64,000 nt of DNA. Origin: Trypanosoma brucei. Lineage: Eukaryota. A model generated the notes under the pieces. It was not told where the DNA came from. It ran no database searches and worked only from the letters and a program-made list of their open reading frames with translations. Below are positions 11,041 to 62,490 of this stretch, one piece after another. The stretch is taken from the NCBI GenBank assembly GCA_000002445.1, contig CP000070.1:128001-192000 (forward strand). Reading direction: 5' to 3'. A program made the translations under genes and the position numbers. Each line of letters opens with the position of its first letter. The stretch's first letter is position 1.

Positions 11041-11249
11041 CGCATGAACTTCCTGCAGTTTTTGGTTTTTTTTTCTTTTTTATGGTTCCTGTTTTAAGTC
11101 TCCTCTTTTTGTTTTATGCGGCGGTGGGTTTTAGGAGGCAAAACGAAGGTTACGTGCGTTTGCGACATGTGGGATAACAGAGAAGAAATAAAACACAGTG
11201 TTAAAATGGAAATAGATAAAGAGATAAATACATACATACATAAATAAAC

Positions 11250-16097: not shown

Positions 16098-18422
16098 TTA
16101 AAAAGAACCCGGTTTACTTGTAGAGGCCGCAGAGTTTGCGGCTTGCTGAATGTACGCCATCAACTCACCGTCATCTCGCTTCACCTCTGTCCGTGACCAC
16201 GGCACACCCTTGCGCATCATTTGATCTCCCAAATACCAAAGTGCATAACACCGTCGCCTGCGCTGCTCTTCCGTGATCGCAACGTCCTGGAGAACATTTT
16301 GAGCGGCAAAGCGAAGCACACAACTTGCGTCGGCCACAACCGAATCAAATTCCATGCTGAAATATTCCGTCATAACCTTCCTGGCCAACCACTCTGGATT
16401 ATCTTTGGCTCTGTCGTCCACCTTCTCGCGAAACGCTGCATAGACACGGTCAACACCAGAGAAAATTTTCTTGTATACGTGAAGCTTTGGTGCATAAAAA
16501 GGTAAAATGCCAAGGAATCGCTGACTTGATATGACATACGACTGTCCAACCTCGTACATCAGTTCCCTTCCAAAACACGCCTCCGCCAGGTGACGTGTGT
16601 AGCGGTCACAACGGTCCTCAAAGTCGCGCGAAAAACAGTTAAACTCGTTGGTAAAACAAGTCAGTTCATATGGTGAGCCCGTTCCTTCATTATTGGGAGT
16701 ATCGCCTTGGTTTTTGTGTTGTGCCGTAGTTTGTTTCCTCTCTCGTGCTGGCTGGTTCTTTTTTCTTCCACTTAATTCATCTATCAGTGCATCAGCAACC
16801 TCACTCTGGGGTTGACCACTTCGATGCTTGCAACCCTTTGCAGCCGGAGCCATTGCATGGACATCGACTATACGTACCAGCTCTAAAGTAAGTTCAAAGC
16901 AGCGAAGTACCTGAAGTTGCTCAAATTCGTGGAGAGAAACACTCACCTGTGCTTCGTTCCGCAAGTGCCAATGGGAACGCAACAGTTGCCCGAGTACTTT
17001 TTGTTTAAAAATTTCACCACCAAACACACTTTGGACAACTTCCTCAGGTGTCCGCGCCATGAACCGTCCCATTTTACTTTCGTGTAGCCGAAGTGCCTGC
17101 GCCCCGCCAAGATCATAGGAACGCCGTTTCTCAGGATTGGAGAGTATTTGATAAGCCTGTGATATGCTCTCAAACTTCTCCCTTGCTTTTCTGCGCTCTT
17201 CTTCGCTGCCACACTGAACAGTATCAGGATGAAAAACTTTAGCCAACCGCTTGTACTGAGCCTTCACTTGCTCCAGTGTAGCATTCCGCTTCACTTGAAG
17301 TACCTCGTAAGGATTTTCGATATTCTCCGCCCTGCCACGAGTTGTATGTTGTGCCTTTTGGTGCTTTCCCCCAAACTTCTCGTTTATACGGTCAAACGAG
17401 AAGCCCATCGACGCGAGCCGGTCTTTCCATCGATTCTCTGCCCTCATATTCTTCCGCCGGAATTCCAACCGACCAACACTTCGAATTGCGCGACGCTCAA
17501 GCGATACCTCACGATGAAGCCACAAAGCAGTTAGGGCGCTGCAGTAGTGCCACCGGCCACTTCCAGCTTCAAAGAAAAGTTTTCCAGAGAGTGCGTTCCA
17601 CACGCCGTACATGGAGTTTATCAGACCGGAGGGAACGTGAATAAGAGGTGAGAGAACTAATCCATAGGCAAGGAACTGCGAGGCGCGTAAAAATCCCGTA
17701 GCTGGCCCCCGAATAGCTCCCATGACAACTCCGTGGTCCCTAATTCCACGCAAAGTACCAAAGAAAACACATGCTAACGAATTCTGAATAGCAATTACAG
17801 AGTTCCACAATAATGTGTAGAGTGCTAACCAAATGTGGCGGCGGGGTGTCAAGTTCATCCTGCCGTAGAAATTAAGCGCATGCAAGCGCTTCATGCGGTT
17901 GAGGTAGTCAAGGTCAGCTGACAGCGTCGCTAATTGATCATTCAGTGCCGTCTCAGGCTGCCCCAACTTCTTCTTTCGCATATTTAGTAGCGCATGCCGC
18001 ATGCGGTTGAAGGTTTGGACGATAGTTGAAGAGGAGCCTACAGGCGGAACCCATCCAACAGGGCGCTGATGTCTTCCTTTAGCGCAAGCATTCGTTGCAC
18101 CATAGCAGCGGATTATCTTCACAACATTTGCCGGACGTCTCGTCCATGTGGACGGACAATCATCGACTACAAGTTGTGGCTTCTCAAAGAGCACAAAAGA
18201 CAACCTCTTCAGTTCTGCTTCCAGAGCGTCCGCCTTGGTTGCGAGTCGGTGGTGTATCGGCAGCATTTCGCTGTCTTCCTGTGAAGCGTCCATTGCTCGG
18301 AATTCCTCCTCTTCCAGCAACTGTTCACGTGTCTCTTCCGATATCCCTTCACTCGTAGTGGCGGTATGTAACCTCCAGCCGGTTGCCGCATTCAACCAAA
18401 CTAAAGAAACATGCCGCCGCAT
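16098..18422 (-). CDS. Membrane-associated J-protein: hydrophobic N-terminal half, a central DnaJ (J) domain, then a DnaJ-X-like region
   Basis: The ORF-track start at 18455 is TTG; the first ATG is at 18422 (MRRHVSLVW...). J domain NPYEVLQVKRNATLEQVKAQYKRLAKVFHPDTV...ISQAYQILSNPEKRRSYD contains the HPD motif. Several hydrophobic helices lie upstream (HIWLALYTLLWNSVIAIQ, FLAYGLVLSPLIHV). SVFGGEIFKQKVLGQLL follows the J domain. Confidence 0.75.
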   Translation of the reverse strand: MRRHVSLVWLNAATGWRLHTATTSEGISEETREQLLEEEEFRAMDASQEDSEMLPIHHRLATKADALEAELKRLSFVLFEKPQLVVDDCPSTWTRRPANVVKIIRCYGATNACAKGRHQRPVGWVPPVGSSSTIVQTFNRMRHALLNMRKKKLGQPETALNDQLATLSADLDYLNRMKRLHALNFYGRMNLTPRRHIWLALYTLLWNSVIAIQNSLACVFFGTLRGIRDHGVVMGAIRGPATGFLRASQFLAYGLVLSPLIHVPSGLINSMYGVWNALSGKLFFEAGSGRWHYCSALTALWLHREVSLERRAIRSVGRLEFRRKNMRAENRWKDRLASMGFSFDRINEKFGGKHQKAQHTTRGRAENIENPYEVLQVKRNATLEQVKAQYKRLAKVFHPDTVQCGSEEERRKAREKFESISQAYQILSNPEKRRSYDLGGAQALRLHESKMGRFMARTPEEVVQSVFGGEIFKQKVLGQLLRSHWHLRNEAQVSVSLHEFEQLQVLRCFELTLELVRIVDVHAMAPAAKGCKHRSGQPQSEVADALIDELSGRKKNQPARERKQTTAQHKNQGDTPNNEGTGSPYELTCFTNEFNCFSRDFEDRCDRYTRHLAEACFGRELMYEVGQSYVISSQRFLGILPFYAPKLHVYKKIFSGVDRVYAAFREKVDDRAKDNPEWLARKVMTEYFSMEFDSVVADASCVLRFAAQNVLQDVAITEEQRRRRCYALWYLGDQMMRKGVPWSRTEVKRDDGELMAYIQQAANSAASTSKPGSF

Positions 18423-19935
18423 CTCTCCTAACCCGATCCCCGGGGCGGATAACAAGTCCGGAGTTGCAGGCTTTTGATTATTTAATTAATTATTATTTTT
18501 TTTTTTTTTGGTTCGCTACTACCTGTAAAGATTTTGGGGGGCGCCGTCATAAACGGTGGCCGTGTCTCATGCGTAGAACATATCAATAGACAGGAAAGTG
18601 AGAGTAAAGGTGGTAGTGTGAAATCATGAAGTTCCATGAATTAAGCATTTCAGATGCTCATGCATTCTGGGCGAACCCCACATAAGTGCCTTTTTCTTAT
18701 CCTGCTTTTACTCAGCGTTAATATGAAATTATCACATGAGTACTGCAGAACAGTCATCAGCCAACTAGTAAGTAAGTAAGTAACATATCAATGATAACTG
18801 TTAAACATGAACCAGCCGGAGCCAACACTTCCATCGACAAGTGGTTGGAGGTTATGCAGAGATAGATGAGGCCAAAACACTACAACCCTTCAGTGTAACA
18901 GAATGCGATAAGATTCAAAGGTTATTGACATTACGCCATCGACATCTTTCCAACTGCGAAGCCGCTAGTCAAACAGTGAGATATTGCAATGCGCCACATA
19001 ACCATTAACCTTTGTTCATTTTCTCATACCACCACCAAACCAACAAAAGACATTAGAAAATGCGCCTCCCTCTCTTATCAGTATTCTTCTTCCAGATTCA
19101 ATATATCACCCGAAATGTAATTACCAACGGTGATGAAGCGTAGTAACACAAACACTACAAATGGGAGTCGAGCTGCTTCACACGATACCTCTTTACACAA
19201 AACAAATTTAATCAACCGCTACACGAGAAACGAGGTGGTGGCTGCCACATATATGTGGAATAAATAAAAAAAAAAGGAATACTCTCAAGGTTAGTAACGA
19301 GTAAAAGCAAAGAAATACACAACATGTAGCCGGAGGAAAACTTAGTTATTATAAATACATATATACATATATATTGATATTGATATTGATATAGATATAG
19401 ATATCCAGCACTTCCATTAACTCTCAAGAGTCTATGAACTACCAATAAAAGTAAATAAACTTACATGACATGCCCACAAAACACGCTGAGGGGGCGGATG
19501 TTACGGACAAAATGAAAAGTACGCTAAAGCATATGACGATGTTCTTTTTGAAACCTACATTTCATTTGGCACACACCGCATAAGAACTCATTCATAACTT
19601 AAAACTAAAGGGATGGAAAAAAAAAAGTCACGCTGAAGCGAAAAGAAGAGAAGAAAAGAGAAGAGAGTGTTTTTTTTTTTAAAAAAGTGAACTACTCCTG
19701 AAGTGCATGTAAAAACAGAAAGAGGACCGAAAAAACTGACCAAAACAGTGAGTGATGATAAGAAAACAAAGGTGGAGAATTCGCTGCTTTGAAATAAAAA
19801 GAAAACAAAAAAACAATGAACCAAAAATATCGCGGCAAACGCCTTCATACACTGCAGAAATGTCAATTAATATGAAAAGTTCACTGGAGAGGGTGTTCAC
19901 ATAGAAAGGAAATAAGTTGTATTCACAGCGACAAT

Positions 19936-19975
19936 TGTAATGATAATAATAATAATAATAATAATGGTAATAATA
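19936..19975. repeat. (AAT)n microsatellite; a second (AAT)n lies at about 20253-20275
   Basis: gataataataataataataataatggtaataat. Confidence 0.85.
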
Positions 19976-21657
19976 TTAGTTCAACGCAACGCAACGTAAA
20001 AGCAAAAAAAAAAATTGAAAATGATGGTCACAAAGCAGTAAAAGGGTGGAAACAGCTTTTCACAAGCAAGAGGGTAGTGCAGTTGGGAAACTAATGATGG
20101 CACAAAAAGACAAACAAAATCAAAAACGAAACAGCAAAAAGCAAAAAAAAAAAGCAAAGATGATGAGTTTGTAGTTGCTCGAAGGATTGTATGGTCCACA
20201 AGTTGTATTCAGATGTCCAAACCAGAATCCAAGGCAAAAGAGGAAGAGTATAATAATAATAATAATAATAATTAAAACAAAACAAAAGGAAAATGAACGG
20301 AAAGGGGGAAAAAAACATACCTGGACGGCCGCTAACGAAGTTTTGAAAGGCACTGAACTGAATGTGCTAAACAAACAAACAAACAGTTTAGCAACCGCAA
20401 TACATTCACACACTTAATAAATAAAAATATATATATACATATATTATTGACTTACAAAGATACAGGGGGAAAAAAAGAGGGGGGAAAATATAAAGGCAAT
20501 TCATATGTTCGATGATCCAGACACATATACACACACAAACGCGAACAAAAAAAAAGAAAAATAGTCGCACGCTCAATAAATAGAAGGGAAGAGAAAAATA
20601 CAGGGCGCGTGTAAAATGCCAAAGAAGCAGTCAAAAGGAATAAATTAAATAAATAAAAAACACAAACTACCGCTCAAATTCATAGACCACTGATTTTTTT
20701 AAAAATTAAAAAAAAACAAAAGTAACGACGATGAAACCCCGGAAGTGGGACGAAAGGAGGCATTTAAGGGGGATCACATCAGGTCAGTAGTGACTTTCCC
20801 ATCAAACAAACAAACAAACACAAAAAAAAAGAGGGTGCAGAACGTTTAAAGGGGAGGACAAGTAATACAAAGATAATTTTAAGAAAATATGAACAAATAA
20901 GACACGAAAAAGAAACAAATGAAAGAAGAAAACAAAAAAAAACAGTGGCTAAACACTAACAAAAAGAAAGTAAGTAGAAATGAGTAAAGGAATCCCGTGA
21001 AGAAACCATGTTAAATAAACATGACTCCTTGCACGAAAAAGTAAAACAAGTCGAACTACCACGAAAATAACAGTGGAAAAAAGGAAACCACAAAAAAAAA
21101 AACAACAACAACACGCCAGCAAAGAAAAAAAAGGAGGATGTTCTTCTTACACTTTGTAACCGGTTTAATACACAGAAATAATAGCACAAATATTTAAAAA
21201 AAAACAATATAAAAGTAAGAAGTAATGATAGAAAAGACATATCCAGTGGGACATAACCTTCGTGAGGTGATGCTGACCCTGAAGTTTACACCAATGGAGC
21301 GCAGCGGTGGTTACACGGCAAAAGTTTTCCCACAATTTGTTCGTACTATTTATTATTATTATTTTTTTTTTTTTTTGAGGGAGAGGTAGGGGCCTTTCCG
21401 CCGCTTCTTTGCAACTCGGCTATCACTTCGATTGATATATACGTGTCAATGATTTAAGCCTTCCAATTTTTTTTGTTTCTTCCCCCTTTTCTTTTCTTTT
21501 CTTTTCGCGTTCGTTCGTTCGTTTGTTTCTTTTATTTATTTATTTATTTATTTGTGCATGCGGGAGGGACTGGGAGAGGAGGAGGAGGGAAGGGATTTCA
21601 TTTGGTATTATCTCTATTTTCCTAACCTTAAGTCTAACATACTCCCCCCTCCCTCCG

Positions 21658-28245: not shown

Positions 28246-30165
28246 TTAGTCAACATCATCGGGGACTGGAGCGTTTCCTTCGCCCTCTCCTGAAGGAGGT
28301 GCCGGAGGTGCCTGTTCCATTGCCCGCTTTACGTAATATGCGGAGAGAATGGGGTGCGCCACCTGCTCAATTTCTTTATTCTTGGCGTCATATTCCTCCT
28401 TTGTTGCATCACGATTCTCATCAAGCCAATTTACCACAGCATTCACAACGGTTTGGATCTTCTGCTGGTCTTCTTGACTAATGTTCTGCTGGACGTCGGG
28501 GTCGCTTAGCGTAGAGCGAAGCGAAAATGTGTAGTTCTCAACGGAATTGCGTGCTTCAATCTTTTCTGCGTTTGCTCGGTCCTCTTCCGCGAATTTTTCA
28601 GCCTCCGCAACCATTTTGTCAATCTGTTCGCGTGAGAGCCGACCCTTGTCATTCGATATGGTGATGGCTTGTGTTTTACCAGCCGTCTCTTCCACAGCGG
28701 TAACAACAAGAATGCCGTCAACGTTCACGTCGAAGCTCACGGTAATCCGCGGCTTGCCGCGGGGCGCAGGGGGGATGTCAGTGAGCGTAAATGTTCCTAA
28801 GCATTGGCATTGCGACACCAAGGGGCGCTCACCCTCGTAAACTTTGATTTCAACACTGCGTTGGTTGTCAGCGTTGGTGGAAAATGTTTGCGATTTTTGT
28901 GCGGGCACGCTGGTGTTGCGCGGAATGAGCACAGACATTACACCACCGGCAGTTTCAACACCCAGTGAAAGCGGAGTCACATCGACTAGGAGAAGGTCTT
29001 TCGTTTGCTTACTTTTGCCACCAGATACGATATGAGCTTGTACCGCGGCTCCATAAGCAACCGCCTCATCAGGGTTGATTGAACGGTTCGGCTCCTTGCC
29101 GTTGAAAAAGTTCTGCACCAACTGTTGCACGCGGGGAATGCGAGTTGATCCACCGACAAGAACCACATCGTCCACTGCCGATGCATCAACCTCGGCATCT
29201 TTCAGGACCTTCCTCACTGGCTCTAGGCAGCGCTCGAATTGGTCACGGCACATCTCCTCGAACCGAGCTCGCGTTATTTTGGAGAAAAAGTCAAACCCTT
29301 CATACAGTGCATCAATCTCAATGTTGGTGCTTGCTGAACTGGAAAGTGTTCGCTTCACCCGTTCGCATGCCGTACGCAAACGCCTCATCGCACGTGCGTT
29401 TCCACGCAAATCCTTACCGGTGCGGGTTCTGAACTCAGTCGCGAAGTAATCCACAAGGCGGCTGTCAAAGTCTTCCCCACCAAGATGTGTGTCACCAGCA
29501 GTTGCCCTCACTTCAAATAAGCCACCGTCAATGTTTAGCAACGTCACATCAAAAGTACCACCTCCAAGATCAAAGATGAGCACCGTCTTCATTGCTCCTT
29601 CAGAACTTCTGTCCATGCCATACGCAATGGCTGCGGCTGTTGGTTCGTTAACGATGCGCAACACCTCAAGACCAGCAATTGATCCCGCGTCTTTTGTTGC
29701 TTGACGTTGCGAGTCGTTGAAATACGCAGGCACAGTCACGACGGCCTTTGATACCTTCTCGCCAAGGTAGGATTCCGCGATTTCCTTCATTTTCTGCAAG
29801 ACCATCGCACTTATCTCTTCGGGGAAAAAGGTTCTCCTCTCACCTTGGTACTCTACCTCCACAACCGGTTTCCCTTCCTTCACAGTTACCTTAAAGGGCC
29901 AATGTTTCATGTCAGCTTGCAGGTCTGGGTCATCATATTTTCGGCCAATTATTCGCTTGGCATCAAACACCGTATTTGTTGGGTTCATGGCCACTTGATT
30001 CTTTGCGGCATCGCCAACCAGTCGCTCAGTTTCACTGAAGGACACATAAGAAGGTGTTGTGCGGTTACCCTGATCGTTGGCGACAATTTCAACCTGATCA
30101 TTTTTGAACACACCCACGCACGAGTAAGTTGTGCCAAGATCAATGCCGATCGCCGGAGCAGGCAT
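28246..30165 (-). CDS. HSP70.4: HSP70 family chaperone; the cytosolic HSP70.4-type member of trypanosomatids
   Basis: ATG verified. Textbook HSP70 motifs: [39 protein letters not shown], a substrate-binding domain and a helical lid. The C-terminus ends ...PVPDDVD rather than EEVD. Confidence 0.95.
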
Positions 30166-39244: not shown

Positions 39245-40888
39245 TTAACCACCTTCACCTCGTTTCTGCTGTTGATAATAATCTCTGAGGGAATTCATTA
39301 GAGCGTCCATGGTTTGCTTATTAGCACCTTTGTACGACTGGCCGTAAGTTATGAATATTTCAGCCAGTGCCTGCAAGGCTTCAAGTCGCTGTCGCCGCTC
39401 CTCTTCGGGTACCTGATGATCCAGTAGAAGAGACGTTGCCACCCACCGAGCTGTGCTCTCCAATTCCTCAACGGAGGTGTACCAGGCCAAATCCACCATT
39501 GTAGCAGAATCCCTAAGAGTGTGTTGGCGGATGCGGCACAAGTGGCGCCATTTGTCAAGGCGTCGACGCATACGATGCGGCCCCGCCTCGTTTAAATACA
39601 GAGTCATTCTCTCCCTTGGTCCAGACGCTTTGCCGTACAGCACCACACGCATGTACTCATGACCCACCGCATGCAGAACCTCGCGCGCAAGACCCGTGTT
39701 AAGTAACCGTTGCAAGCGTCCCTTGAGTTCCTGAAGCGCAGGCGCGCCCTTGCTGTCCTTCTCGCTCCGTAGAGGTTGCAAGTAAACGCTAAGCAACTCA
39801 TCGCGACACCGTTCCAGCGTGCGCTGCCTGAAAATAGCAAGCTCTTCCTGTGTCCAGTCAAGTCCATCAATTACACGTTGCGAAAAGCTCCCTGTCTTAA
39901 CGTCACCCACTATGGCATACAGAGCGTCACCACCAAATAGGGCCCGAACAGCACCACGCTTCTTCTTACCTATGTCCTCTACCCCACTTCTCCCACCCAT
40001 ATCATACTTACGGCGCTTCTCCGCGTTACCAAGAACACGGTATGCTTTGGTTAAAACGTCAAACTGAGACGCTGCTGATTGGCTTGGATTCCTGTCAGGG
40101 TGAATTTCAAGAGCAAGACGATTGTAAGCCTCTTTGATTTGCTGCGGTGTTGCGTCCCGTGTAACACCTAGAATTGCATAGTAATCGTCACCTTCACTAG
40201 GGTGTGTACCTCCCTTTCGTTCATACCCTACATCTCGCTTGCCCCGGCGCTTGCGACGCGTTTCCCGCTTCATTGCCCGCTCGAACAGTTTTTCCGGTGG
40301 TGCCTGAAGTGAGAGAAGTGGATGGGAATTGCCAACAACACCAGAGGGGTACTCATATCTGCAGGAGAGTTCATTCCAGCAGCAACCTGGGCAAAACAGG
40401 TAAAATATGGGCGCCCTCAACGTGTGAACGCCGCATAGCAGCATCTGTTGCACAGCCGCGTACCATGCAATGGCCATAAAAACAGCTCCCCAGAACAACC
40501 CAACACCTGGGGCAATGACTAAAGCCGCTGGTCTCAAGCCTCGCAACCGTATCGCCTCAAGGGATACGGAAAGCGCCAGTAACGGCGAAACGAGAAAAGA
40601 AAGCGTTATATTAAGGGCAGCCCCACCCACAGCCCTCACTATATTCCTCGTTGGGCGTGTTGAAAGGATCACACGCCCCTCATCACCTTCTTCCTCACAG
40701 CGCCGCTTCAGAAATGCAACTTCCTCCTCCGTTATTAGCGTGAAAACCCTGCGATCGCCTTCTGGTCGGACAAAGGAGGAAAGCCACCATCCTTTACCAC
40801 TGGTGCGCCGTGCTTGGAGCGGGATGTGTTGCGTCACCGCGGTCAACTGCTGAAGAATGAGCCGCCTGGCTGTTAGTCCACTTGACAT
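39245..40888 (-). CDS. Membrane J-protein: N-terminal transmembrane helices, a DnaJ (J) domain and a C-terminal DnaJ-X domain
   Basis: ATG verified. J domain DYYAILGVTRDATPQQIKEAYNRLALEIHPDRNP...LTKAYRVLGNAEKRRKYD (HPD). DnaJ-X-like start RALFGGDALYAIVGDVK. Hydrophobic helices upstream (LVIAPGVGLFWGAVFMAIAWYAAV). Confidence 0.8.
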   Translation of the reverse strand: MSSGLTARRLILQQLTAVTQHIPLQARRTSGKGWWLSSFVRPEGDRRVFTLITEEEVAFLKRRCEEEGDEGRVILSTRPTRNIVRAVGGAALNITLSFLVSPLLALSVSLEAIRLRGLRPAALVIAPGVGLFWGAVFMAIAWYAAVQQMLLCGVHTLRAPIFYLFCPGCCWNELSCRYEYPSGVVGNSHPLLSLQAPPEKLFERAMKRETRRKRRGKRDVGYERKGGTHPSEGDDYYAILGVTRDATPQQIKEAYNRLALEIHPDRNPSQSAASQFDVLTKAYRVLGNAEKRRKYDMGGRSGVEDIGKKKRGAVRALFGGDALYAIVGDVKTGSFSQRVIDGLDWTQEELAIFRQRTLERCRDELLSVYLQPLRSEKDSKGAPALQELKGRLQRLLNTGLAREVLHAVGHEYMRVVLYGKASGPRERMTLYLNEAGPHRMRRRLDKWRHLCRIRQHTLRDSATMVDLAWYTSVEELESTARWVATSLLLDHQVPEEERRQRLEALQALAEIFITYGQSYKGANKQTMDALMNSLRDYYQQQKRGEGG

Positions 40889-44771: not shown

Positions 44772-46481
44772 TTAGTTGTCTTCACTCTCAAGGGGAGTGC
44801 TTCCACGCACGTGGACATGAAACCCCTTCAGAAGAAACCTCCTCTCCTCTGAAGGTCCTGAAAGTGGAGGTTGAGTGTCGTCCTTTTCCATGTAAATGAC
44901 GTTATCGCACATTGTGCCACAACTGACGTCGCCCTCTAAACGAACAGTGCCCTCCAAAGCATTCTTCTGAAGGGAAGGATGTTGCGCAGGAATGGGCGGC
45001 GGCCTTGGCACGTCAGCGTCCTCCTCTTCCTCACCTTCTTCTTCCACTTCTTCGTTCTCATTTTCTTCAGCTTCCCGCTGTGCACGCTCGCAGGCCACTC
45101 TCTCAACAGCTTCTGCATCAGGTGGTATAGGTGGCACACGACCTTTTACAAGGATGCACTCCCTCCCACACCATCTAATCGCACAGCACTTAACTTTAGC
45201 AGCGCCACACTCTCCAGTGAAGAGTATGCCCACAGTACTATGGCTTTCCAGCCGCAGGAACTTCAATTCGGTGCCCGCGCAACCGTCGACAAGCATAACC
45301 CCAATATCTGTGTGGGCAATAAAGCAGTCACGCACGGAAACATCCGCATCGTCCAGATACAGTGCTACGTTGCACATAGCCTTTGTAGGTATCTTGGGTT
45401 GGGATACGACCTTCTTCCACCGATTCTTCAGGCGAAATAAGGGGCTTTGTTGTGCATGACGCGCAGCACGAAACTGGTCGGCGGTATACGTGGTTGGCGT
45501 TCCCTCAACAGGACCCAAAATCATGGAGGTGTGGATCTGCAGTGAGCACCGTGGATACGCGTAAAGCGCCTGCTTCGCACTGCCGTAAATAATGCAGAAC
45601 TCTATCAGCGCCTCGCTAAGAGGGTGGGCCACTACTGTTGGCAGCACTGGAGGTTCCGTAGATGGTTGACACGTAGTCGTTTCCACGGCCTCGGTCGTCG
45701 CTAAGGGATCTTTCCTCTGTAATGCATAATCGCCGAAGACACAGTGGCGGAATGTGGATCTGGTGAGTGGATTAAGCTCGATACCCCCAAAGAAGCATAA
45801 ACCTTGCATTTCCAGATGATTATCCTTTGCTTTGTGAACCATCTCAGCCTCCTCTGTGGACCCCTCTGGAGCATCGTCGGCATTTTCCTCCTCTTCATCC
45901 CCATCAGCCACTCTATCCTGCTCATCATCATAGTGTTTAATGCCCTGCAATCCCTCAGGAATTTCCGCGTCTTCATCGACAGAAACAAACGGCCGACTGT
46001 GACGCACTATCAGTCGCCCTTCAATCACTGGAAACAGTTGGGGATCTGGTGCTGTAGGGGTTACAGTTGCGGTAGCAGGTGCTTCACCACCGTAGGGCGC
46101 GTACCATGGGCCCAATCGGCGCTCGTCCCTTGGAATATGGATCTTCTTGCGATAACCAGCCTTCCGCCCCAGTGCCACCGGGACGCTCATAATCCGTAAG
46201 CCATCCAGTCGAGACTCCTCAATGACCACCTCTTTCTCAAGATAGGCGCCAGGGTACACGATCACAAGGTCCTCACGGTATGTCACCGCGTCCAACGCTT
46301 CCTGCAGCTTCTGCATGCTACTAAAACCACCCACGTAAAATGTACTTGGTCCATCTTCCAGCTGGGAGAGATCGTTTGATTCCTCCCACTCCTCTTCTTC
46401 TTCCTCTTCTTCTTCCTCTTCCTCCTCTTCTTCTTCCTCTTCTTCTTCACGTGCTTCAAGCTCGCTTTTCTTCGGAGGCAT
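44772..46481 (-). CDS. Hypothetical protein (569 aa) with an N-terminal poly-glutamate run of more than 20 residues
   Basis: ATG verified. MPPKKSELEAREEEEEEEEEEEEEEEEEEEEWEE is encoded by a (GAG/GAA)n codon repeat at about 46372-46450. The rest is non-repetitive. Confidence 0.6.
   Translation of the reverse strand: MPPKKSELEAREEEEEEEEEEEEEEEEEEEEWEESNDLSQLEDGPSTFYVGGFSSMQKLQEALDAVTYREDLVIVYPGAYLEKEVVIEESRLDGLRIMSVPVALGRKAGYRKKIHIPRDERRLGPWYAPYGGEAPATATVTPTAPDPQLFPVIEGRLIVRHSRPFVSVDEDAEIPEGLQGIKHYDDEQDRVADGDEEEENADDAPEGSTEEAEMVHKAKDNHLEMQGLCFFGGIELNPLTRSTFRHCVFGDYALQRKDPLATTEAVETTTCQPSTEPPVLPTVVAHPLSEALIEFCIIYGSAKQALYAYPRCSLQIHTSMILGPVEGTPTTYTADQFRAARHAQQSPLFRLKNRWKKVVSQPKIPTKAMCNVALYLDDADVSVRDCFIAHTDIGVMLVDGCAGTELKFLRLESHSTVGILFTGECGAAKVKCCAIRWCGRECILVKGRVPPIPPDAEAVERVACERAQREAEENENEEVEEEGEEEEDADVPRPPPIPAQHPSLQKNALEGTVRLEGDVSCGTMCDNVIYMEKDDTQPPLSGPSEERRFLLKGFHVHVRGSTPLESEDN
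46372..46450 (-). repeat. (GAG/GAA)n codon repeat encoding a poly-Glu run
   Basis: The plus strand reads tcctcttcttcttcctcttcttcttcctcttcctcc... Confidence 0.85.
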
Positions 46482-53531: not shown

Positions 53532-55163
53532 CTAAAGCGATGCTTCGTCAGGTAACACTCCCTCGCGGAATGCCTCCTTCATCCGCTGGGACAGCTCCGG
53601 TGCAAGATCGTTGCCGTAGTGCGATAAGAGCGCCTGCAGTTGCCTCCCCTCCTCCGCCGTTATGGGGCGCACACGCTTTCCTGTTTTTGGGTCGACGAGA
53701 TCGTCCTTCTGCTCCATCACTATCGCAACCATATCATTTGCTTGGGAAAAAATGACCTGCAGACACTTCTTGGGCACGTATATTTTCAGCGTGACAACGA
53801 CATCGAGTATGCTAAGGATGACGGGTAGTGCTGGGTACTCAACTTCGTCAAGGCGGCACCCGATCTGCTCACCCATTGCGCGGAGCTTCTGCCGAGTCGG
53901 TTCCGCATTCATCGCATTGCGACCTCCATCACTTACTTGATTGAAACATGTGCGTATGGCAATCATGGCGGCGTTCGCCATATGATGGGTAAGCTGATCG
54001 GAGGTACAAATACGCTCTACTAACCGTTCACACACCTCCAGGCGCATGGTGCGCCACTTACGCAATACGTGGGCGAGCGTGGCACACTCGTGCGGGGTAA
54101 AGTCACCCACGTGATTCGTGGCACGGATAGCTAATGGCTCAAGGTGAAATGGCGTAAGGTCATGTACTGTATAACACTGCAATACACCGAGTAGTGACGG
54201 TAGGTCGAAGTCATTCGCGAGGACTCCAACACGGCGAGACATCGCCAGCAACACCTTACGGCGGATATCCAGTGTCTCTTTGGCACATCCACGACGGGTT
54301 TTAAAAAGACGAGTTGAAAATGCCTTAACGGAAGACATGTCAATGTTCTCGTAATTACTGAATTTGAGAAGTGATTTCTCCATGCGATTCCAAAGGTGCC
54401 TGTTGTAAAAGTTGGCTGTAACAACATGCGTTGTCACATACAACACATCATCAGCAGAGAGGACACCGTCACCATCGCGACGTAACACCTCAACCGTTAG
54501 CATTCGCATAGCCGCTGTGTACTGCTTCTCTTCCAACCAATCCCGTTCTTTTAGCGAAGTTGTGTAATAAAGTGTCCGGCGTAGCTCGTGCATCCCTGCA
54601 CGCTGCAACAAGGGTGTTGTTTGCATTTGCTTTACTAATGCTGTCATTTCATTGGTCGCCGACGTCTTCAGCTCCTCAACGAATTCCTCCATGCCTTCCT
54701 GCGTAAGAATTTCAGCGCTAGCACTGAGTGCATTCTGGGCTTTCAGTTGCACCGCCAATTCATCCGCCTTTGCAACACACTCCGACAGTACGTCACAATG
54801 AGCGGTGATGGCGGTGGAGGTGACCGGAAGGGAGCCGTTGACTCCAGATCCCGGTGAGTACGACACGGGAAGCGGGCCTTCCATTGCCACCGCCTCCCCT
54901 CCCCCAGTTCCAACATTTAACGAAGGATTGGTAACAGGTGACAGCGGTGAACCGGTGACGGGTGGCCCAGAGGACGCAATCCATCGTTTTGTGTCAAGAA
55001 CTGTAAAACCTGCCTTCGGTAGCACGGTAACTACCGGGTAGCGGCGATACAACAGATTCCTACTGAAAACTCGTTCATGGTAACCAATGCCAGAATGTAC
55101 AGAATGTTTGGACGACAGTAAACTCCCCACATCCTGACAACATAAAACTACCCGACGTCGCAT
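53532..55163 (-). CDS. Hypothetical protein (543 aa); the N-terminus looks like an organellar targeting sequence and the body is alpha-helical
   Basis: ATG verified. Arg-rich N-terminus MRRRVVLCCQ...LLYRRYPVV. No recognisable catalytic motif. Confidence 0.55.
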   Translation of the reverse strand: MRRRVVLCCQDVGSLLSSKHSVHSGIGYHERVFSRNLLYRRYPVVTVLPKAGFTVLDTKRWIASSGPPVTGSPLSPVTNPSLNVGTGGGEAVAMEGPLPVSYSPGSGVNGSLPVTSTAITAHCDVLSECVAKADELAVQLKAQNALSASAEILTQEGMEEFVEELKTSATNEMTALVKQMQTTPLLQRAGMHELRRTLYYTTSLKERDWLEEKQYTAAMRMLTVEVLRRDGDGVLSADDVLYVTTHVVTANFYNRHLWNRMEKSLLKFSNYENIDMSSVKAFSTRLFKTRRGCAKETLDIRRKVLLAMSRRVGVLANDFDLPSLLGVLQCYTVHDLTPFHLEPLAIRATNHVGDFTPHECATLAHVLRKWRTMRLEVCERLVERICTSDQLTHHMANAAMIAIRTCFNQVSDGGRNAMNAEPTRQKLRAMGEQIGCRLDEVEYPALPVILSILDVVVTLKIYVPKKCLQVIFSQANDMVAIVMEQKDDLVDPKTGKRVRPITAEEGRQLQALLSHYGNDLAPELSQRMKEAFREGVLPDEASL

Positions 55164-56356
55164 GCGCGAAATCCCTTCACCTGATCCGCTCTAAGAGAAG
55201 AGAAACTTAAAGACATGCACAAAGTGTTGCGAGTGATCGTTGGAAGCATTGAGAAAACGGTAGTACTACAACACTCGCACTGATGCAGATCCATTGAACA
55301 CACACTAGAGGGAGAGCTCGTTGAGGATAAAGTAAAGATTTGGAGCTTTAATCTCTTTTGCACGAGGGCAACAAACTCCGTACAGAAAATAAAAAGTTCC
55401 CTCGTGGAAAAACACAAGCTACACGAAGCATAACACCACGCACGGAGGGCACAACGACCCGGGGTAGCATAAGCAAAGAAAAAAACCTTAAAAAAATTAA
55501 TAACACGATATATGTTCTGATCGTCGCTGTTGCCCTTCCAACCTAGCCTACCGCACAAAAGCGGAGGCAAAGAAGGATTTAAAAGGAGGGGGTGAATTTA
55601 AATGCTATCTTGCACATAATAAGTTGTAATGTGGGTTATACATCGCTTAGCACAACTAACTGATGCCACATAATTGATAAACTAAAAGGTGGGGAAAGAA
55701 GAAACTCCTCTCCCCTTCTATCCCATGACTCATGGTAGAGCAACCACACAACAACCTGCGCAGTGTCGCACATGGGTAAAATCTATTGGAGGAGCTGCGC
55801 GTAAACAGTCGGTATCAAAACAGGTCGCAAGTTTTCTAACAGAGACCGGCAACGGAGAAAATTACAAAAACCAACGTGCGACAAAAAAGGGGATACAGAG
55901 GAGAAACGTTGCCTCTAAATCTGAGCAACTGCACACGTTGTTGCTCACAAGTACAGGAGAAACAAAGATATGAGGAATATGCCAAGTAAGCAGTCAAGCG
56001 TGGGAATGAAGGAAGGAAGGTATCTCGTGCGACACACTAAAGGGGACGCAACCGGTTCCGCGTCAGCTACGGGGAAGTGAAAAAAAGAAACTTGAAAAAC
56101 ACACCCAATATATATGCATATATGCTCTCACTTGATTTCGCCATCCTTCACGTGCAGTTATTGACGGTTCCCTCGAAATATTGCACGGGAACTGCCATGT
56201 TCTATAGGAGGTGAAACTCGTATCAGAGACACCACTGGCAACCACCAAACGGTACACGCATGCCACAAAGCAAATGCAGAAGCAAGTATGCAGGGAAAAA
56301 ATTTAACCGTCAAACGGAAGTTCACGCATGGTCCCAACACGACAGCACGCAATTAT

Positions 56357-59300
56357 TTACCATGAACTACTACACGACTCCGTCTCATGGCTCTTTGCGG
56401 TGCGGTCATTAGTGTGCGAATCCCGCCCAGAACTTGTTTCTGACCTGGTGTCATCACTGACATCACTGGTGGCATCTGATTTAGTATCTTTGATATCCGT
56501 AGCGGTATCTGCAGTAGCTGGTTCCTGTTCAACACTGGTAACAGATTTCGCATCATCACTAACATCACTGGTGGCATCTGATTTAGTATCTTTGATATCC
56601 GTAGCGGTATCTGCAGTAGCTGGTTCCTGTTCAACACTGGTAACAGATTTCGCATCATCACTAACATCACTGGTGGCATCTGATTTAGTATCTTTGATAT
56701 CCGTAGCGGTATCTGCAGTAGCTGGTTCCTGTTCAACACTGGTAACAGATTTCGCATCATCACTAACATCACTGGTGGCATCTGATTTAGTATCTTTGAT
56801 ATCCGTAGCGGTATCTGCAGTAGCTGGTTCCTGTTCAACACTGGTAACAGATTTCGCATCATCACTAACATCACTGGTGGCATCTGATTTAGTATCTTTG
56901 ATATCCGTAGCGGTATCTGCAGTAGCTGGTTCCTGTTCAACACTGGTAACAGATTTCGCATCATCACTAACATCACTGGTGGCATCTGATTTAGTATCTT
57001 TGATATCCGTAGCGGTATCTGCAGTAGCTGGTTCCTGTTCAACACTGGTAACAGATTTCGCATCATCACTAACATCACTGGTGGCATCTGATTTAGTATC
57101 TTTGATATCCGTAGCGGTATCTGCAGTAGCTGGTTCCTGTTCAACACTGGTAACAGATTTCGCATCATCACTAACATCACTGGTGGCATCTGATTTAGTA
57201 TCTTTGATATCCGTAGCGGTATCTGCAGTAGCTGGTTCCTGTTCAACACTGGTAACAGATTTCGCATCATCACTAACATCACTGGTGGCATCTGATTTAG
57301 TATCTTTGATATCCGTAGCGGTATCTGCAGTAGCTGGTTCCTGTTCAACACTGGTAACAGATTTCGCATCATCACTAACATCACTGGTGGCATCTGATTT
57401 AGTATCTTTGATATCCGTAGCGGTATCTGCAGTAGCTGGTTCCTGTTCAACACTGGTAACAGATTTCGCATCATCACTAACATCACTGGTGGCATCTGAT
57501 TTAGTATCTTTGATATCCGTAGCGGTATCTGCAGTAGCTGGTTCCTGTTCAACACTGGTAACAGATTTCGCATCATCACTAACATCACTGGTAGTGTATG
57601 GCTTAGTCGCCCGAGATTTCGTGGTGGCGTCCGACGGTGTTGGCCCCTGCCCTACGCTTGCGGCGGACTGTGTGCCGTCGCTTACTTCAGAGGCAGCCTC
57701 TGATTTTGGTTCCAATGATTTCGTGGTATTTTCCAACAGGTCCCGTTGTTGCTCATCAGCCCTCCTCGCGGAGCCCTCAATGACAGTTCCTTCAACAGGG
57801 TTGACAACACCTTTAGTGGTGGGCTCCTGCTCATCACTGGCATTTGATAGCGCACCTTTACCTATCTTGGTAAGACTCGCTACATTCGAAACTTCACCTG
57901 CTGAAACATTACCACCCGTATGTGCCTCTTCGTTGGATCCTCCTCCCGATCGCCGGTCAACACTCAACCCTGCAGCTCCCATTCCATTCGTTTCCTTTGC
58001 TTTTAGAACGGTGTCCCTTACGGTGGAAGCCTTCTCCTTGCAAGTCTTTAAATGTGCTCCGTGGCTGATGTCAGTAACTCTGTTTAATTTATCGTTTGGA
58101 GCCACTGTGACACAGCCTTCAACGGCAGACTCGTGTTTGTGACCGGTGCCCAGTAACTCATTCTGCGGAGCACCGCTACTCTTTTGTACAATCATCCCCA
58201 TGGTTGTGTGCCGGGGCAAACCCGCGGGGCTGTCGCTGGAAAGTTGATGTTTCACCGATGCGGTGTCTGCTTCGTCAGTTCGTACAGTCGCTTGCGATGC
58301 GCTTCTAAAATCCTGATATCTCCTCAAGTTTTCCTCTCCCGTCATGTGTGGCTTCTGGTTCCCTAAAACTTTAGTCGATTGGACACTTTTCGCGGAATCA
58401 CACGATGATGGACGCACGATTCGACGCTCCTCTACCCCTTCGTCCGTTACATGCCTAAGCGTAACCCCCAATTCCCCACCCTGCATCTCCTCTCGGTTTA
58501 ACAACTTCTGTTTCGCTCCAAGGTGCGATACTAGCCAACGGTTGTACGCATCTTCTAGATGGTGTAATAATACCTCCTTGCGATTCACGTCATATTCTCC
58601 CCCCTCTCCACAATTTTCCCTTTCTATCTCCTCTACCTCATGTTCGAGAAGCAGCTGTTCTACTACTCGTTTGTGAAGCATGCGAGCTTGCTGATAGCTT
58701 CTGATCCCGTCGAAGTAGCGGTGGAAAACACTCTCAGTCATTTGTGCACCATCGGGCAAGGGACATCCCGGTACTCTGCCATCAAATAAAGAAGCATCAC
58801 GTGTCCCGCGTCCTTCTATTTCAGGTCTATTGTGGGAGAAATTTCCCCGCGTCCTCCGGTTTCGAAGTGTAGTGATGTCCCTAGCCCCAGTTCCACGAGA
58901 CGAAGTGGACCCAGAAAGACCGGGGTAAGAAACTCCTAGAGCTGCAAACGAATCAGCAGCAGTCACTCCGAACTTATTTCTGTTGCTGTTGAAACTGAGC
59001 CCACCCACATGCTGCTGCAGTGATGGGGACAATTTATTACGGGATTGGTCACACGATGTTGCTCCTGAACGAGACCGGGAAGAACTATTAAAACGCATGG
59101 ACGAATATGCAGACATTGGTGCATCACCTGTACCTGATGCATAGAAACGGTGAAATCTCTTGGGAGTCTGGACGCGCCTGCTGGGTGACCTTCTTTCAAA
59201 CGAGTATAATTTCACCAGTTTCGGCTCTCCTAAGTCAAAGATCGAGTCGTCCTGTTGCATTCGTTGTGGCATTCCCACATTTGTTCCGGGAGATACCCTC

Positions 59301-60907
59301 GTACGACGATTCCGTTGGGGCGAGACAGACATGCGTCTACCATTAACAGGACTCTGGGGGGAAGCGTTAATTGGCCAGTTTTGCGAGTAACTCCAGTGAG
59401 TGGTACTTGCAGAGTTGGGCATCCCGCTCGACCTTCGAGTTGAAGCATTAGGAGTACACATTCCATCCCTTGATTGGGAATTGCCTTGGTTCCCAGATAA
59501 CGCACGCCAATAAGTGCTGGAGGGCAAATAACCGCCACTAATGTCCGTACGTTGATGACCCTCTCCGTATACAGGGGACGTGGACGATCCGTTATCTGCT
59601 CTCATATGTGTCTCCCCTGTCGGATTTAATGAAAGTTTGTCTACTCGAGTGCCTGGGCGGCTGCAATGAGGTGTGCAGAAAGAATAACCATTTTGCCGCT
59701 GCCCCTCAATCTCTTCTTGCTCCCGGGATTGTCCACCACTCATGGGTCTCCAATGGTCAATGCCAGGTCGAGATAAATTACATGAGGAGCAACGGGACCC
59801 ATCAAAGCCACTGCATGACCTCGGCACCCGCATCGGTGAGGCGGGAGCAGCCGTAAATAGATGCTGAGCTGCAGGTTGGGAATGCGATGACACACCAAAC
59901 GACCCACACGAAAGACTGTTCGGACTACGTGATCCGCAAGGTACACTTTGAATGCAACTGCCATGCACGACCCCGGAGCCTGCGTGAGCAGCCACTGGAA
60001 TTCCACTCCCATAACTGGCTCTGCGAACACTATCAAAGTCCCTGGAGTCCCTGACACTGTTTCCCATATAGTTATTTAACTTAGTAAAAAACAGTTGTTG
60101 TTTCTGCTTCATACAGGGAAAGTCATTACCAACCACTCCTGTGGACCCCGCATTGCCACCCCCGTGAGCACATGGCTTCCCCCCTCCATCAGCATCACTG
60201 CAGTCAGCAGCGCGGCTGCCGTGGCGGTCACCATCTTTGCACCCTTCGGTAAACGATCCGTCGATTATGGAAGACGGTGGTCGAGTGACTGTTGGGTCTT
60301 GCTTGCGGGAATGGTATCCACGTATTATGCATGAATGGGAAATCGCGCTGAGTTCCTTTCCGAGTTGTTCCATGGCAAGTCGGCGCCTTAAAACGGAACA
60401 GCAATCACCAACTGCTTCGGTTGTATCTATCAGATATTTTGCACTCTCTAACCGCAGGAGGGCCTGCTGGAAGCAATTGTGCTGAATGAAGACACGCGCC
60501 TCCCCGAATTTCTGCCAGGCGATGTCTAATGCCGCATGAACCCTCTTGCGAGCCTCGTCTCCAGTACTACTTGTAGGCCTTTCACACCCGTGGAATGAAT
60601 GCGGTGGTTTTGACTCACCTCGAACGGATTTCCCCCCCCTTCCTTCGGAATCTGGTCTCACTGATCGAACCCTCGTCCTCCGTTGAAGCGGTGTGTAGTC
60701 AAGTCCCCGCGTCAGTGGCGTCGCACTCTGCGCCCGGGAAGAAGGCCTCGAAGTTTTGTGGCTCACAACACTGCTTCTTCGTGGAGCTCTACCTCGACCA
60801 GCCGCACCTGCAGGTGTTGCACAGGATACCCATTGTCTTGATCTAAAAATGAAGTCTGAATCAGACAAATGACCCTTCGCGTCTCTTCCAACGGCGATCA
60901 CCCTCAT
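56357..60907 (-). CDS. Large (1516 aa) Ser/Thr/Asp-rich low-complexity protein with about 11 C-terminal 34-aa tandem repeats (SDATSDVSDDAKSVTSVEQEPATADTATDIKDTK)
   Basis: ATG verified at 60907, with a polyY tract upstream (60995-61105). 102-nt perfect tandem repeats at about 56446-57590. The N-terminal region has a helical segment ARKRVHAALDIAWQKFGEARVFIQHNCFQQALLRLESAKYLID. Confidence 0.7.
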   Translation of the reverse strand: MRVIAVGRDAKGHLSDSDFIFRSRQWVSCATPAGAAGRGRAPRRSSVVSHKTSRPSSRAQSATPLTRGLDYTPLQRRTRVRSVRPDSEGRGGKSVRGESKPPHSFHGCERPTSSTGDEARKRVHAALDIAWQKFGEARVFIQHNCFQQALLRLESAKYLIDTTEAVGDCCSVLRRRLAMEQLGKELSAISHSCIIRGYHSRKQDPTVTRPPSSIIDGSFTEGCKDGDRHGSRAADCSDADGGGKPCAHGGGNAGSTGVVGNDFPCMKQKQQLFFTKLNNYMGNSVRDSRDFDSVRRASYGSGIPVAAHAGSGVVHGSCIQSVPCGSRSPNSLSCGSFGVSSHSQPAAQHLFTAAPASPMRVPRSCSGFDGSRCSSCNLSRPGIDHWRPMSGGQSREQEEIEGQRQNGYSFCTPHCSRPGTRVDKLSLNPTGETHMRADNGSSTSPVYGEGHQRTDISGGYLPSSTYWRALSGNQGNSQSRDGMCTPNASTRRSSGMPNSASTTHWSYSQNWPINASPQSPVNGRRMSVSPQRNRRTRVSPGTNVGMPQRMQQDDSIFDLGEPKLVKLYSFERRSPSRRVQTPKRFHRFYASGTGDAPMSAYSSMRFNSSSRSRSGATSCDQSRNKLSPSLQQHVGGLSFNSNRNKFGVTAADSFAALGVSYPGLSGSTSSRGTGARDITTLRNRRTRGNFSHNRPEIEGRGTRDASLFDGRVPGCPLPDGAQMTESVFHRYFDGIRSYQQARMLHKRVVEQLLLEHEVEEIERENCGEGGEYDVNRKEVLLHHLEDAYNRWLVSHLGAKQKLLNREEMQGGELGVTLRHVTDEGVEERRIVRPSSCDSAKSVQSTKVLGNQKPHMTGEENLRRYQDFRSASQATVRTDEADTASVKHQLSSDSPAGLPRHTTMGMIVQKSSGAPQNELLGTGHKHESAVEGCVTVAPNDKLNRVTDISHGAHLKTCKEKASTVRDTVLKAKETNGMGAAGLSVDRRSGGGSNEEAHTGGNVSAGEVSNVASLTKIGKGALSNASDEQEPTTKGVVNPVEGTVIEGSARRADEQQRDLLENTTKSLEPKSEAASEVSDGTQSAASVGQGPTPSDATTKSRATKPYTTSDVSDDAKSVTSVEQEPATADTATDIKDTKSDATSDVSDDAKSVTSVEQEPATADTATDIKDTKSDATSDVSDDAKSVTSVEQEPATADTATDIKDTKSDATSDVSDDAKSVTSVEQEPATADTATDIKDTKSDATSDVSDDAKSVTSVEQEPATADTATDIKDTKSDATSDVSDDAKSVTSVEQEPATADTATDIKDTKSDATSDVSDDAKSVTSVEQEPATADTATDIKDTKSDATSDVSDDAKSVTSVEQEPATADTATDIKDTKSDATSDVSDDAKSVTSVEQEPATADTATDIKDTKSDATSDVSDDAKSVTSVEQEPATADTATDIKDTKSDATSDVSDDAKSVTSVEQEPATADTATDIKDTKSDATSDVSDDTRSETSSGRDSHTNDRTAKSHETESCSSSW
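56446..57590. repeat. Tandem array of about 11 near-identical 102-bp units, coding and in-frame (34 codons per unit)
   Basis: The landmark atttagtatc recurs at 56479, 56581, 56683 ... 57499, exactly 102 bp apart. All three minus-strand frames and one plus-strand frame stay open through the array, which produces three overlapping ORF-track entries. Confidence 0.95.
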
Positions 60908-61569: not shown

Positions 61570-62490
61570 TCACATGCCTGGTGTCGGGGTACTACTCTTC
61601 TCTACAGCGGCAAATCTTTTAATCTCATTGATAATCTGCTGATTGGCTTTTCTCAGATACTTCACTTCCTCCTCGTGGATCTTCTGTTCGGACTGCTTCT
61701 GCTCCTCGAAGCGCTTCAGCATCCCATTGTGCTTTGCTCGTAACTCATTCACACGATTCTCGAGTCGACGCACCTCGCTTTCCATCCATTCTTTCTCCTT
61801 GAATAGATAGCTTCTCAAATCACGCTCAATGGCCTTTCGTACGGTATATTGAGAGGCACTATCAAACAGAATATCGTACGTATTTGTTGTTTGCTGCATC
61901 TCCTCCGCCAATTCGGCTAGCAGCAACCCACGTTCCGGACAGAGCACAGTCACCTGTCGAATAACCTCCCGCATTCCATCTGCGTATATCCCCTCCCGAA
62001 TAGTGCATACCACTCCAGAGGGACGTGCATGCTCCTGTTGACAGCGCCGCTCCAAGTGTTCCTGAAGGTGAACACAGTCCAAACGGCTCGTGTGATCAAC
62101 GGCAGCAGCCTTCATCCATGCACATTCCTGCTCCTGCCCGCGGGTATTGGTACGATCCTTATCGTGTCCCGGCACGTTGAGTGGCACGGGGGGAAACAAT
62201 TTGGCGAGGGCTTTTACTGGAGTTAAACTTTCCTGAGTGAGTCGCACTGGTCCCCCATCCGACTGAATGGCGTCTCGTGTGCCGGCAACCCCGCTTTGCG
62301 TTTGCCCGAACTTTTGTCTATTGGTGGTGGGAATGGTGGGCGCCTCTTGGCCCGCGGCGGCGGCTGTAGCAGCATTAACCGCTGCAGCCGTGATCGGCTC
62401 ATCGTCACTAATTAAGTTTGAAGGAACAGCACGATACAACACGGTGCCTTCCTCATCGTAAACGTTCGGTGGTGCGTTCAAGGTTGCCAT
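61570..62490 (-). CDS. DNALI1: Axonemal inner-arm dynein light chain p28 (DNALI1 family)
   Basis: ATG verified. ...DCVHLQEHLERRCQQEHARPSGVVCTIREGIYADGMREVIRQVTVLCPERGLLLAEL...YLRKANQQIINEIKR is collinear with human DNALI1 (...DVVHLEEQLD...ICPVRRELYSQCFDELIRQVTINCAERGLLLL...FLKRTNQQLK). Confidence 0.85.
   Translation of the reverse strand: MATLNAPPNVYDEEGTVLYRAVPSNLISDDEPITAAAVNAATAAAAGQEAPTIPTTNRQKFGQTQSGVAGTRDAIQSDGGPVRLTQESLTPVKALAKLFPPVPLNVPGHDKDRTNTRGQEQECAWMKAAAVDHTSRLDCVHLQEHLERRCQQEHARPSGVVCTIREGIYADGMREVIRQVTVLCPERGLLLAELAEEMQQTTNTYDILFDSASQYTVRKAIERDLRSYLFKEKEWMESEVRRLENRVNELRAKHNGMLKRFEEQKQSEQKIHEEEVKYLRKANQQIINEIKRFAAVEKSSTPTPGM

Follow-up and report, generated by a model that had tools for sequence, protein, structure and literature searches.

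How does a protein with relatives across the genus Trypanosoma come to end in a run of repeat units that do not differ by a single nucleotide, and what might such a tail contribute to it? This question is raised by a minus-strand open reading frame (ORF) of T. brucei that encodes 1516 amino acids and lies in the 64,000-nucleotide stretch of contig CP000070.1 analyzed here (positions 128,001 to 192,000 of the forward strand), which is called the window throughout. An exact sequence match in a protein collection identifies the product as XP_845705.1 (Q57VS7, AAZ12146.1), encoded on chromosome 7 of T. brucei brucei TREU927 and publicly labeled "hypothetical protein, conserved". The gene identifier can be deduced from neighbor order as Tb927.7.810, since the gene is the only one between Tb927.7.800 and Tb927.7.820. 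Among all frames of this interval the annotated one has the best codon score (0.404), and its start codon is backed by the conserved N-terminus in T. congolense. We consider it probable, with some reservation, that the product is an intracellular disordered scaffold whose lineage-specific acidic tail grew at its present site through unequal recombination or slippage during replication.

A uniform core between decayed edges

Tandem Repeats Finder places the array at 56451..57592, with a period of 102, 11.2 copies, 99% matches and a score of 2277. No other large tandem repeat occurs in the window, where the remaining ones are microsatellites. Ten consecutive units of 102 bp, each encoding 34 amino acids, show zero nucleotide differences, and they are preceded on the coding strand by a unit that is 95% identical and departs from the others in its first 9 nucleotides alone (PYTT for SDAT; Table 1). 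The original prediction of a 1516-amino-acid protein with about 11 near-identical 102-bp units is therefore borne out as ten identical units and one at 95%, and the unit sequence it gave, SDATSDVSDDAKSVTSVEQEPATADTATDIKDTK, is confirmed. Each unit contains 11 Ser/Thr residues, 9 Asp/Glu residues and 3 CK2-type sites. The repeat register was also extended past both ends of the array. Against an in-frame background identity of 26.7 ± 4.4% (maximum 41.2%, n = 903), the next unit upstream, SEAASEVSDGTQSAASVGQGPTPSDATTKSRATK, is 53.9% identical in register, and the next unit downstream, SDATSDVSDD followed by TRSETSSGRDSHTNDRTAKSHETE, is 60.8% identical. At the protein level the upstream edge unit reaches an alignment score of 82, compared with a shuffle mean of 37 ± 6 and with none of 300 shuffles attaining that value; the downstream edge unit is near-identical to the core over its first 30 nucleotides and decayed in the remainder. 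Since the in-register identity of both flanks lies far above background, the array is a homogenized core flanked by decayed copies.

The array is genuine and older than the subspecies split, because the independent assembly of T. b. gambiense DAL972 contains it at the same locus and with variants of its own. Gene order at that locus is identical (TEP1/TROVE, p28, target gene, RESC10), and the ortholog, XP_011774381.1, has 1346 residues, exactly 5 x 34 fewer than the TREU927 protein. Its array comprises 6.2 copies at 98% identity, with five full units, of which three non-adjacent ones carry T41C (Val to Ala), one carries C2T (Ser to Leu) and one A102G; the 3'-most full unit matches the TREU927 unit exactly. 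Outside the repeat, 24 of 3306 coding nucleotides differ between the subspecies (0.73%), the ratio of nonsynonymous to synonymous substitution rates (dN/dS) is about 0.52 on small counts, and all 15 amino-acid differences fall outside the conserved blocks. Set against this divergence of the flanking coding sequence, the ten identical units of TREU927 and the five of T. b. gambiense with three variant sites, together with the uniform core and decayed edges, support the recent expansion or concerted evolution that had been proposed from the sequence. The copy number, which had been expected to vary between strains, does so at least between these two subspecies assemblies.

Either the TREU927 array has been homogenized and expanded, or its variants and unit count have been smoothed in assembly. 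The latter alternative, in which the array exists and its ten perfect units are an assembly product, with the count expanded or collapsed and the variants smoothed to a consensus, is unlikely in our view, if worth serious thought. Going by what is generally known of read lengths, a perfect repeat of about 1.1 kb exceeds a Sanger read, and variant units are found in the T. b. gambiense array and none in that of TREU927. The assembled number of repeat units can moreover be arbitrary in these genomes (Jackson et al., 2010; PMC2854126), and exact copy numbers in Sanger-era assemblies may be unreliable. However, decayed edge units stand in register with the TREU927 array, the window is free of N bases and gaps, and the two T. 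congolense records described below likewise differ in copies and variants, which makes biological polymorphism plausible. The occurrence of the same unit at the same locus in T. b. gambiense shows that the array itself is genuine. The earlier caution that the assembly might have created or distorted the array thus retains its force for the exact count and loses it for the existence of the array.

Conserved islands and diverging tails across Trypanosoma

An exhaustive phmmer search with the 1105-residue non-repeat part against 1.84 billion representative proteins matched ten proteins. One of these comes from a Logan run assembly, and the other nine belong to named Trypanosoma species, namely T. 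congolense (E = 2.8e-33), T. theileri (4.5e-21), T. conorhini (5e-19), T. cruzi (1.3e-18), T. rangeli and T. grayi, the last two represented by fragments, and the matches coincide with the conserved blocks. No Leishmania protein was matched in this single-sequence search of the representatives. A word-indexed search with block profiles added no orthologs, and it was a weak search that recovered just one known ortholog. In T. rangeli the TROVE and p28 genes lie upstream of the gene, as in T. brucei, which confirms its orthology by position; the contig ends before the RESC10 side is reached. The T. rangeli ortholog consists of two ORFs (302 and 725 amino acids) that lie 20 nucleotides apart (retrieved-locus positions 8001-8909 and 8929-11106 of MKGL01000064.1), the split being due to a frameshift, a sequencing error or a pseudogenized copy. 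Orthologs thus occur across the genus Trypanosoma, and as far as these searches go the protein appears to be restricted to it.

In an alignment of orthologs from seven Trypanosoma species and the Logan run-assembly sequence, conservation is confined to a short N-terminal motif, two blocks (block 1 and block 3) and the linear motif SIFDLGEPKLVKLYSFE, the last of which is covered in six species and in the Logan sequence. The N-terminal motif, M-x-[WV]-I-x-[IV]-x-x-x-x-KG, opens a disordered tail that is basic in all orthologs (net charge +10 to +20; +15 in T. brucei). AlphaFold2, run with the ortholog alignment, predicts block 1 (LDxAWxKFGEARV...EAKxxID...QLGxEL) as a three-helix bundle, with helices at residues 114-142, 146-161 and 169-202, a mean predicted local distance difference test score (pLDDT) of 85 and core values above 95. 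The linear motif, with the consensus DLGEPxLVxLYxFE, sits in a disordered basic linker, and block 3 (FxxYFDGxxSYQxARxLH ... LExxYxxWLVxHLG) is modeled as a short helix that leads into a long helical hairpin (mean pLDDT 77). The spacing between the blocks is conserved across the orthologs. The non-repeat part had been described as Ser/Pro/Arg-rich with only a short helical N-terminal segment. Its composition is in fact Ser/Gly/Arg-rich (S 12.9, G 10.1, R 9.4, P 5.2%), and the single helical segment is an incomplete account, since two helical modules and a linear motif are conserved genus-wide.

These modules match no known family by sequence or structure. Pfam yielded no family at E <= 0.01 for the full protein and nothing meaningful for the block sets of eight orthologs, in all eight of which the MIT family (PF04212) was unmatched at E <= 1. 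Foldseek comparison of block 1 with the PDB gave no significant match (best E 0.48), and its matches repeatedly include MIT domains, among them those of spastin, katanin p60, spartin and VPS4; the fold search with block 3 returned no match. The sole PDB match of the conserved blocks by sequence profile is gamma-SNAP (2ifu) over block 1, at E 0.01 and 18.7 bits. An origin of blocks 1 and 3 by internal duplication was rejected (hhalign probability 1.2%). The modeled fold of block 1 is a generic one, and no family membership is claimed for it.

A short basic motif was observed three times in the disordered regions, once as RRTRVR and twice as RNRRTR (residues 76-81, 532-537 and 682-687; 60670-60687, 59302-59319 and 58852-58869 on the minus strand). 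A kinase site is one possible reading of it, a cluster of the nuclear-localization type another.

The C-terminal part of the protein differs between lineages. No internal repeats occur in the orthologs of T. theileri, T. conorhini and T. cruzi, in the C-terminal fragment of T. rangeli or in the Logan fragment. The T. congolense ortholog has a C-terminal array at the same position as that of T. brucei, with a 41-amino-acid unit, AEAKESVSRSISEAKGKSPVAGSSGHGSAVMSEAPTAVEAV, in 4.5 copies in one record and at least 5.5 in a second, partial record, and the two records differ in their variants. In T. congolense IL3000 these arrays cover residues 941-1145 (4.5 copies) and residues 661-890 (at least 5.5, running off a 2.8-kb contig), and the units vary at Ser/Ala and Lys/Glu between the records, which points to variation between alleles or between assemblies in this species as well. 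A common origin of the T. brucei and T. congolense units was rejected (alignment score 28 against 29.9 ± 7.1 for shuffles). The T. congolense unit has no single-copy counterpart in the T. brucei protein (z = -0.7), and the T. brucei unit finds a marginal match in the tail that follows the T. congolense array (z = 2.2, 32 of 1000, uncorrected).

In the T. cruzi group the tail after block 3 has 177-207 residues and a net charge of -1 to -16; T. brucei and T. congolense have tails of 528-720 residues with a net charge of -26 to -72. Three motifs, RFSDGI, RLEAALxFGR and GRTLVFxRE, are common to T. theileri, T. conorhini, T. cruzi, T. grayi and T. rangeli and lacking in T. brucei and T. congolense, the last of them ending the proteins of the T. 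cruzi group. From these sequences, the African lineages seem to have replaced an ancestral C-terminus. A search with the repeat alone against 5.8 billion proteins gave no match, and this search was weak, as it did not recover the protein itself either. By these comparisons the T. brucei array is specific to its lineage, with a unit that is not kept even within the African trypanosomes. What makes the locus most interesting is that T. brucei and T. congolense have unrelated arrays at one and the same C-terminal position.

How the tail may have arisen and what it may do

A simple hydropathy scan found no signal peptide, transmembrane segment or glycosylphosphatidylinositol signal (maximum 19-residue Kyte-Doolittle value 0.99; mean 0.03 over the N-terminal 20 residues and -1.62 over the C-terminal 20), and the protein is predicted to be intracellular and largely disordered. 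Its charge is divided between the two ends, with +43 over residues 1-724 and -70 over residues 1072-1516, and the isoelectric point is 9.5 for the non-repeat part and 4.05 for the repeat. If the protein is the scaffold that we propose, its conserved core of basic N-tail, three-helix bundle, DLGEPxLVxLYxFE motif and helical hairpin would presumably be functional, with fast-evolving Ser/Gly/Arg-rich linkers keeping the islands at a conserved distance from one another and with partners binding through the three conserved islands. The in-register decayed units on both flanks and the T. b. gambiense array at the syntenic locus show that the array evolved where it stands. A 102-bp piece of the acidic tail would have multiplied there through unequal recombination or slippage during replication, and concerted evolution would keep the units uniform, which may be why the inner units are identical and the edge units decayed. 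The array would then matter for a bulk property, as a long, acidic, length-tolerant and disordered extension, rich in Ser/Thr and so phosphorylatable, rather than as a folded or sequence-specific domain, and it would stand opposite the basic N-terminal two-thirds of the protein.

Several points weigh against this explanation. Its functional part is an inference from composition and conservation, and the proposed partner binding of the islands has to be set beside fold searches of the models that yield generic three-helix-bundle matches alone. The ten-unit identity and the unit count could partly reflect Sanger assembly of a 1.1-kb perfect repeat, and repeats at the same position in two African lineages could mean that repetitiveness itself has been selected and is more than neutral bulk. 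Literature and supplements gave no data on localization, expression, phosphorylation or fitness. Tb927.7.810, the protein accessions and the repeat peptide are named nowhere in the literature searched, and the gene is absent from the supplements of spatial proteomics, the cell-cycle phosphoproteome, the developmental proteome and the nuclear proteome. It is not in the TrypTag supplement tables either, from which the neighboring genes are missing too, so that this absence is uninformative.

By analogy with the intracellular tandem-repeat antigens of trypanosomatids, selection may have favored the tail as a B-cell antigen or decoy that is immunodominant and is freed when the parasite lyses, an antigen idea that had been raised from the sequence and that we hold to be fairly unlikely. 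Its near-identical tandem units are multivalent, tandem-repeat proteins are often seroreactive (as is generally known, and cited in PMC3808341), and the unrelated arrays at one position are found in T. brucei and T. congolense, the African bloodstream trypanosomes examined, and in none of the T. cruzi-group species. Yet the protein is predicted to be intracellular, neutral gain of repeats also occurs in disordered tails, and the literature searched, from which both gene and repeat peptide are absent, holds no serological evidence. That T. brucei and T. congolense built their arrays independently, with selection converging on a repetitive tail because they live as extracellular parasites of the bloodstream, is a doubtful proposition. 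If it were true, the repetitive tail might be a multivalent decoy antigen freed on lysis, or a length-tunable acidic spacer required by that way of life, and not the outcome of neutral slippage.

It is likewise rather improbable that the protein is associated with the cytoskeleton, as had also been suggested from the sequence, or with microtubules. In this reading, modeled on the repetitive microtubule-associated proteins, the Ser/Arg/Gly-rich part, being basic, would attach to the acidic face of tubulin, and the acidic tail would project as a spacer. The strong charge polarity, the N-tail that is basic in every ortholog and the recurrence of MIT domains of spastin, katanin p60, spartin and VPS4 among the fold matches are consistent with such a role. 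On the other side, the ortholog block sets had no Pfam match to MIT, and the flagellar reference list in the supplement of Goos 2017 includes Tb927.7.820 and leaves out Tb927.7.810. It is extremely improbable that the real product is the 604-residue plus-strand ORF or the 411-residue ORF in an alternative minus frame, which are both long and open, but only because the repeat unit is free of stop codons in three of the six frames, and which have codon scores of 0.025 and -0.141, respectively, against 0.404 for the annotated frame. The plus-strand ORF lies antisense to a unidirectional polycistron, and the annotated frame extends 3.3 kb further upstream and has orthologs genus-wide.

We continue to favor the amplified acidic tail of a disordered scaffold. 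The locus documents one case in which a trypanosome protein has acquired a repeat tail confined to its lineage, with a uniform core, decayed edges, a copy difference between subspecies and an unrelated array at the same site in T. congolense. The small conserved core (bundle, DLGEP motif and hairpin) provides concrete pieces to mutate or tag, and the array is a candidate marker for strain typing and a candidate serodiagnostic peptide. Current views of trypanosome biology are left unchanged.

The surrounding locus and known systems

Every large ORF of the window lies on the minus strand, as expected for a trypanosomatid polycistron, and the gene stands between the genes for RESC10 and p28 (Table 1), with a telomerase-associated protein encoded by the neighboring Tb927.7.830. 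The p28 genes of TREU927 and DAL972 (retrieved-locus positions 4430-5350 in the latter) differ by four nonsynonymous and one synonymous substitution, a dN/dS of about 1.2 that is unexpected for a conserved axonemal protein, on tiny counts.

Table 1. Coordinates in the window of the gene, its conserved parts, the repeat units, the overlapping ORFs and the adjacent genes.
Feature	Position	Strand	Extent	Basis or remark
Coding sequence of the 1516-amino-acid protein	56357..60907	-	stop codon included	ORF list, exact protein match, codon score
Basic disordered N-tail	60569..60907	-	residues 1-113	charge scan, ortholog alignment
Block 1, predicted three-helix bundle	60302..60568	-	residues 114-202	AlphaFold2
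Linear motif	59195..59245	-	residues 555-571	alignment
Block 3, predicted helical	58472..58735	-	residues 725-812	AlphaFold2
Decayed edge unit (-2)	57602..57703	-
First array unit (-1)	57500..57601	-
Homogenized core	56480..57499	-	10 units x 102 bp	Tandem Repeats Finder and unit comparison
Decayed edge unit (+1)	56378..56479	-
Antisense ORF	56328..58142	+	604 amino acids	by-product of stop-free unit
ORF in alternative minus frame	56353..57588	-	411 amino acids	by-product of stop-free unit
MRB800/RESC10, Tb927.7.800	53532..55163	-	543 amino acids	neighbor
p28 axonemal dynein light chain, axonemal dynein marker Tb927.7.820	61570..62490	-		neighbor

Elsewhere in the window, two genes that each encode DnaJ and DnaJ-X domains (16098-18455, 785 amino acids, and 39245-40888, 547 amino acids, both on the minus strand) lie about 21 kb apart in the same polycistron, and they flank the gene for HSP70.4 (28246-30165), which is Tb927.7.710. 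The interval 18456-21657 comprises 3.2 kb without an ORF of at least 200 amino acids and with just short hydrophobic low-complexity ORFs of fewer than 100; it is probably a long untranslated region or intergenic sequence with many T tracts and microsatellites. A TCT/TCCTCTTCTTCT microsatellite of about 19 triplets (46390-46448), near the 5' end of a 569-amino-acid hypothetical ORF (44772-46481, minus strand), would encode a short homopolymer-like run. An Rfam scan of the window found no RNA family.

Several known systems resemble the protein in part. With the MIT domains of spastin, katanin p60, VPS4, NRBF2, spartin and MITD1, block 1 shares a predicted bundle of three helices over about 80 residues. 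In contrast to a true member, it has no significant match to them (Foldseek E >= 0.48), no Pfam match and no associated AAA ATPase or ESCRT context, and equally good scores go to spectrin and plakin repeats, syntaxin Habc, BAG domains and de novo bundles. The hairpins of gamma-SNAP and TPR-like proteins provide the only sequence-level PDB match, which lies below any safe threshold; they form a multi-hairpin solenoid, unlike the three helices of block 1, and the fold searches are unsupportive. Basalin, in the parts of its description considered here (PMC6392502), is similar in that its orthologs were traced by gene order and short islands in a sequence that otherwise diverges fast; basalin has a proven role in the flagellum basal plate, whereas the present protein has no demonstrated role and carries a tandem array. 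The protein is also like the tandem-repeat proteins and antigens of trypanosomatids (GM6, MARP and the T. cruzi repetitive antigens), an operational class with which it shares in-frame near-identical units, a predicted intracellular location, a copy number that differs between isolates and a lineage-specific array. It differs from them in a unit for which the weak search that missed its own protein detected no similarity to any protein, and in that its array lies within the C-terminal tail, outside the conserved part of this genus-specific protein. The gene is already catalogued publicly, yet unstudied, and its product is an ordinary trypanosomatid tandem-repeat protein and not a new kind of system.

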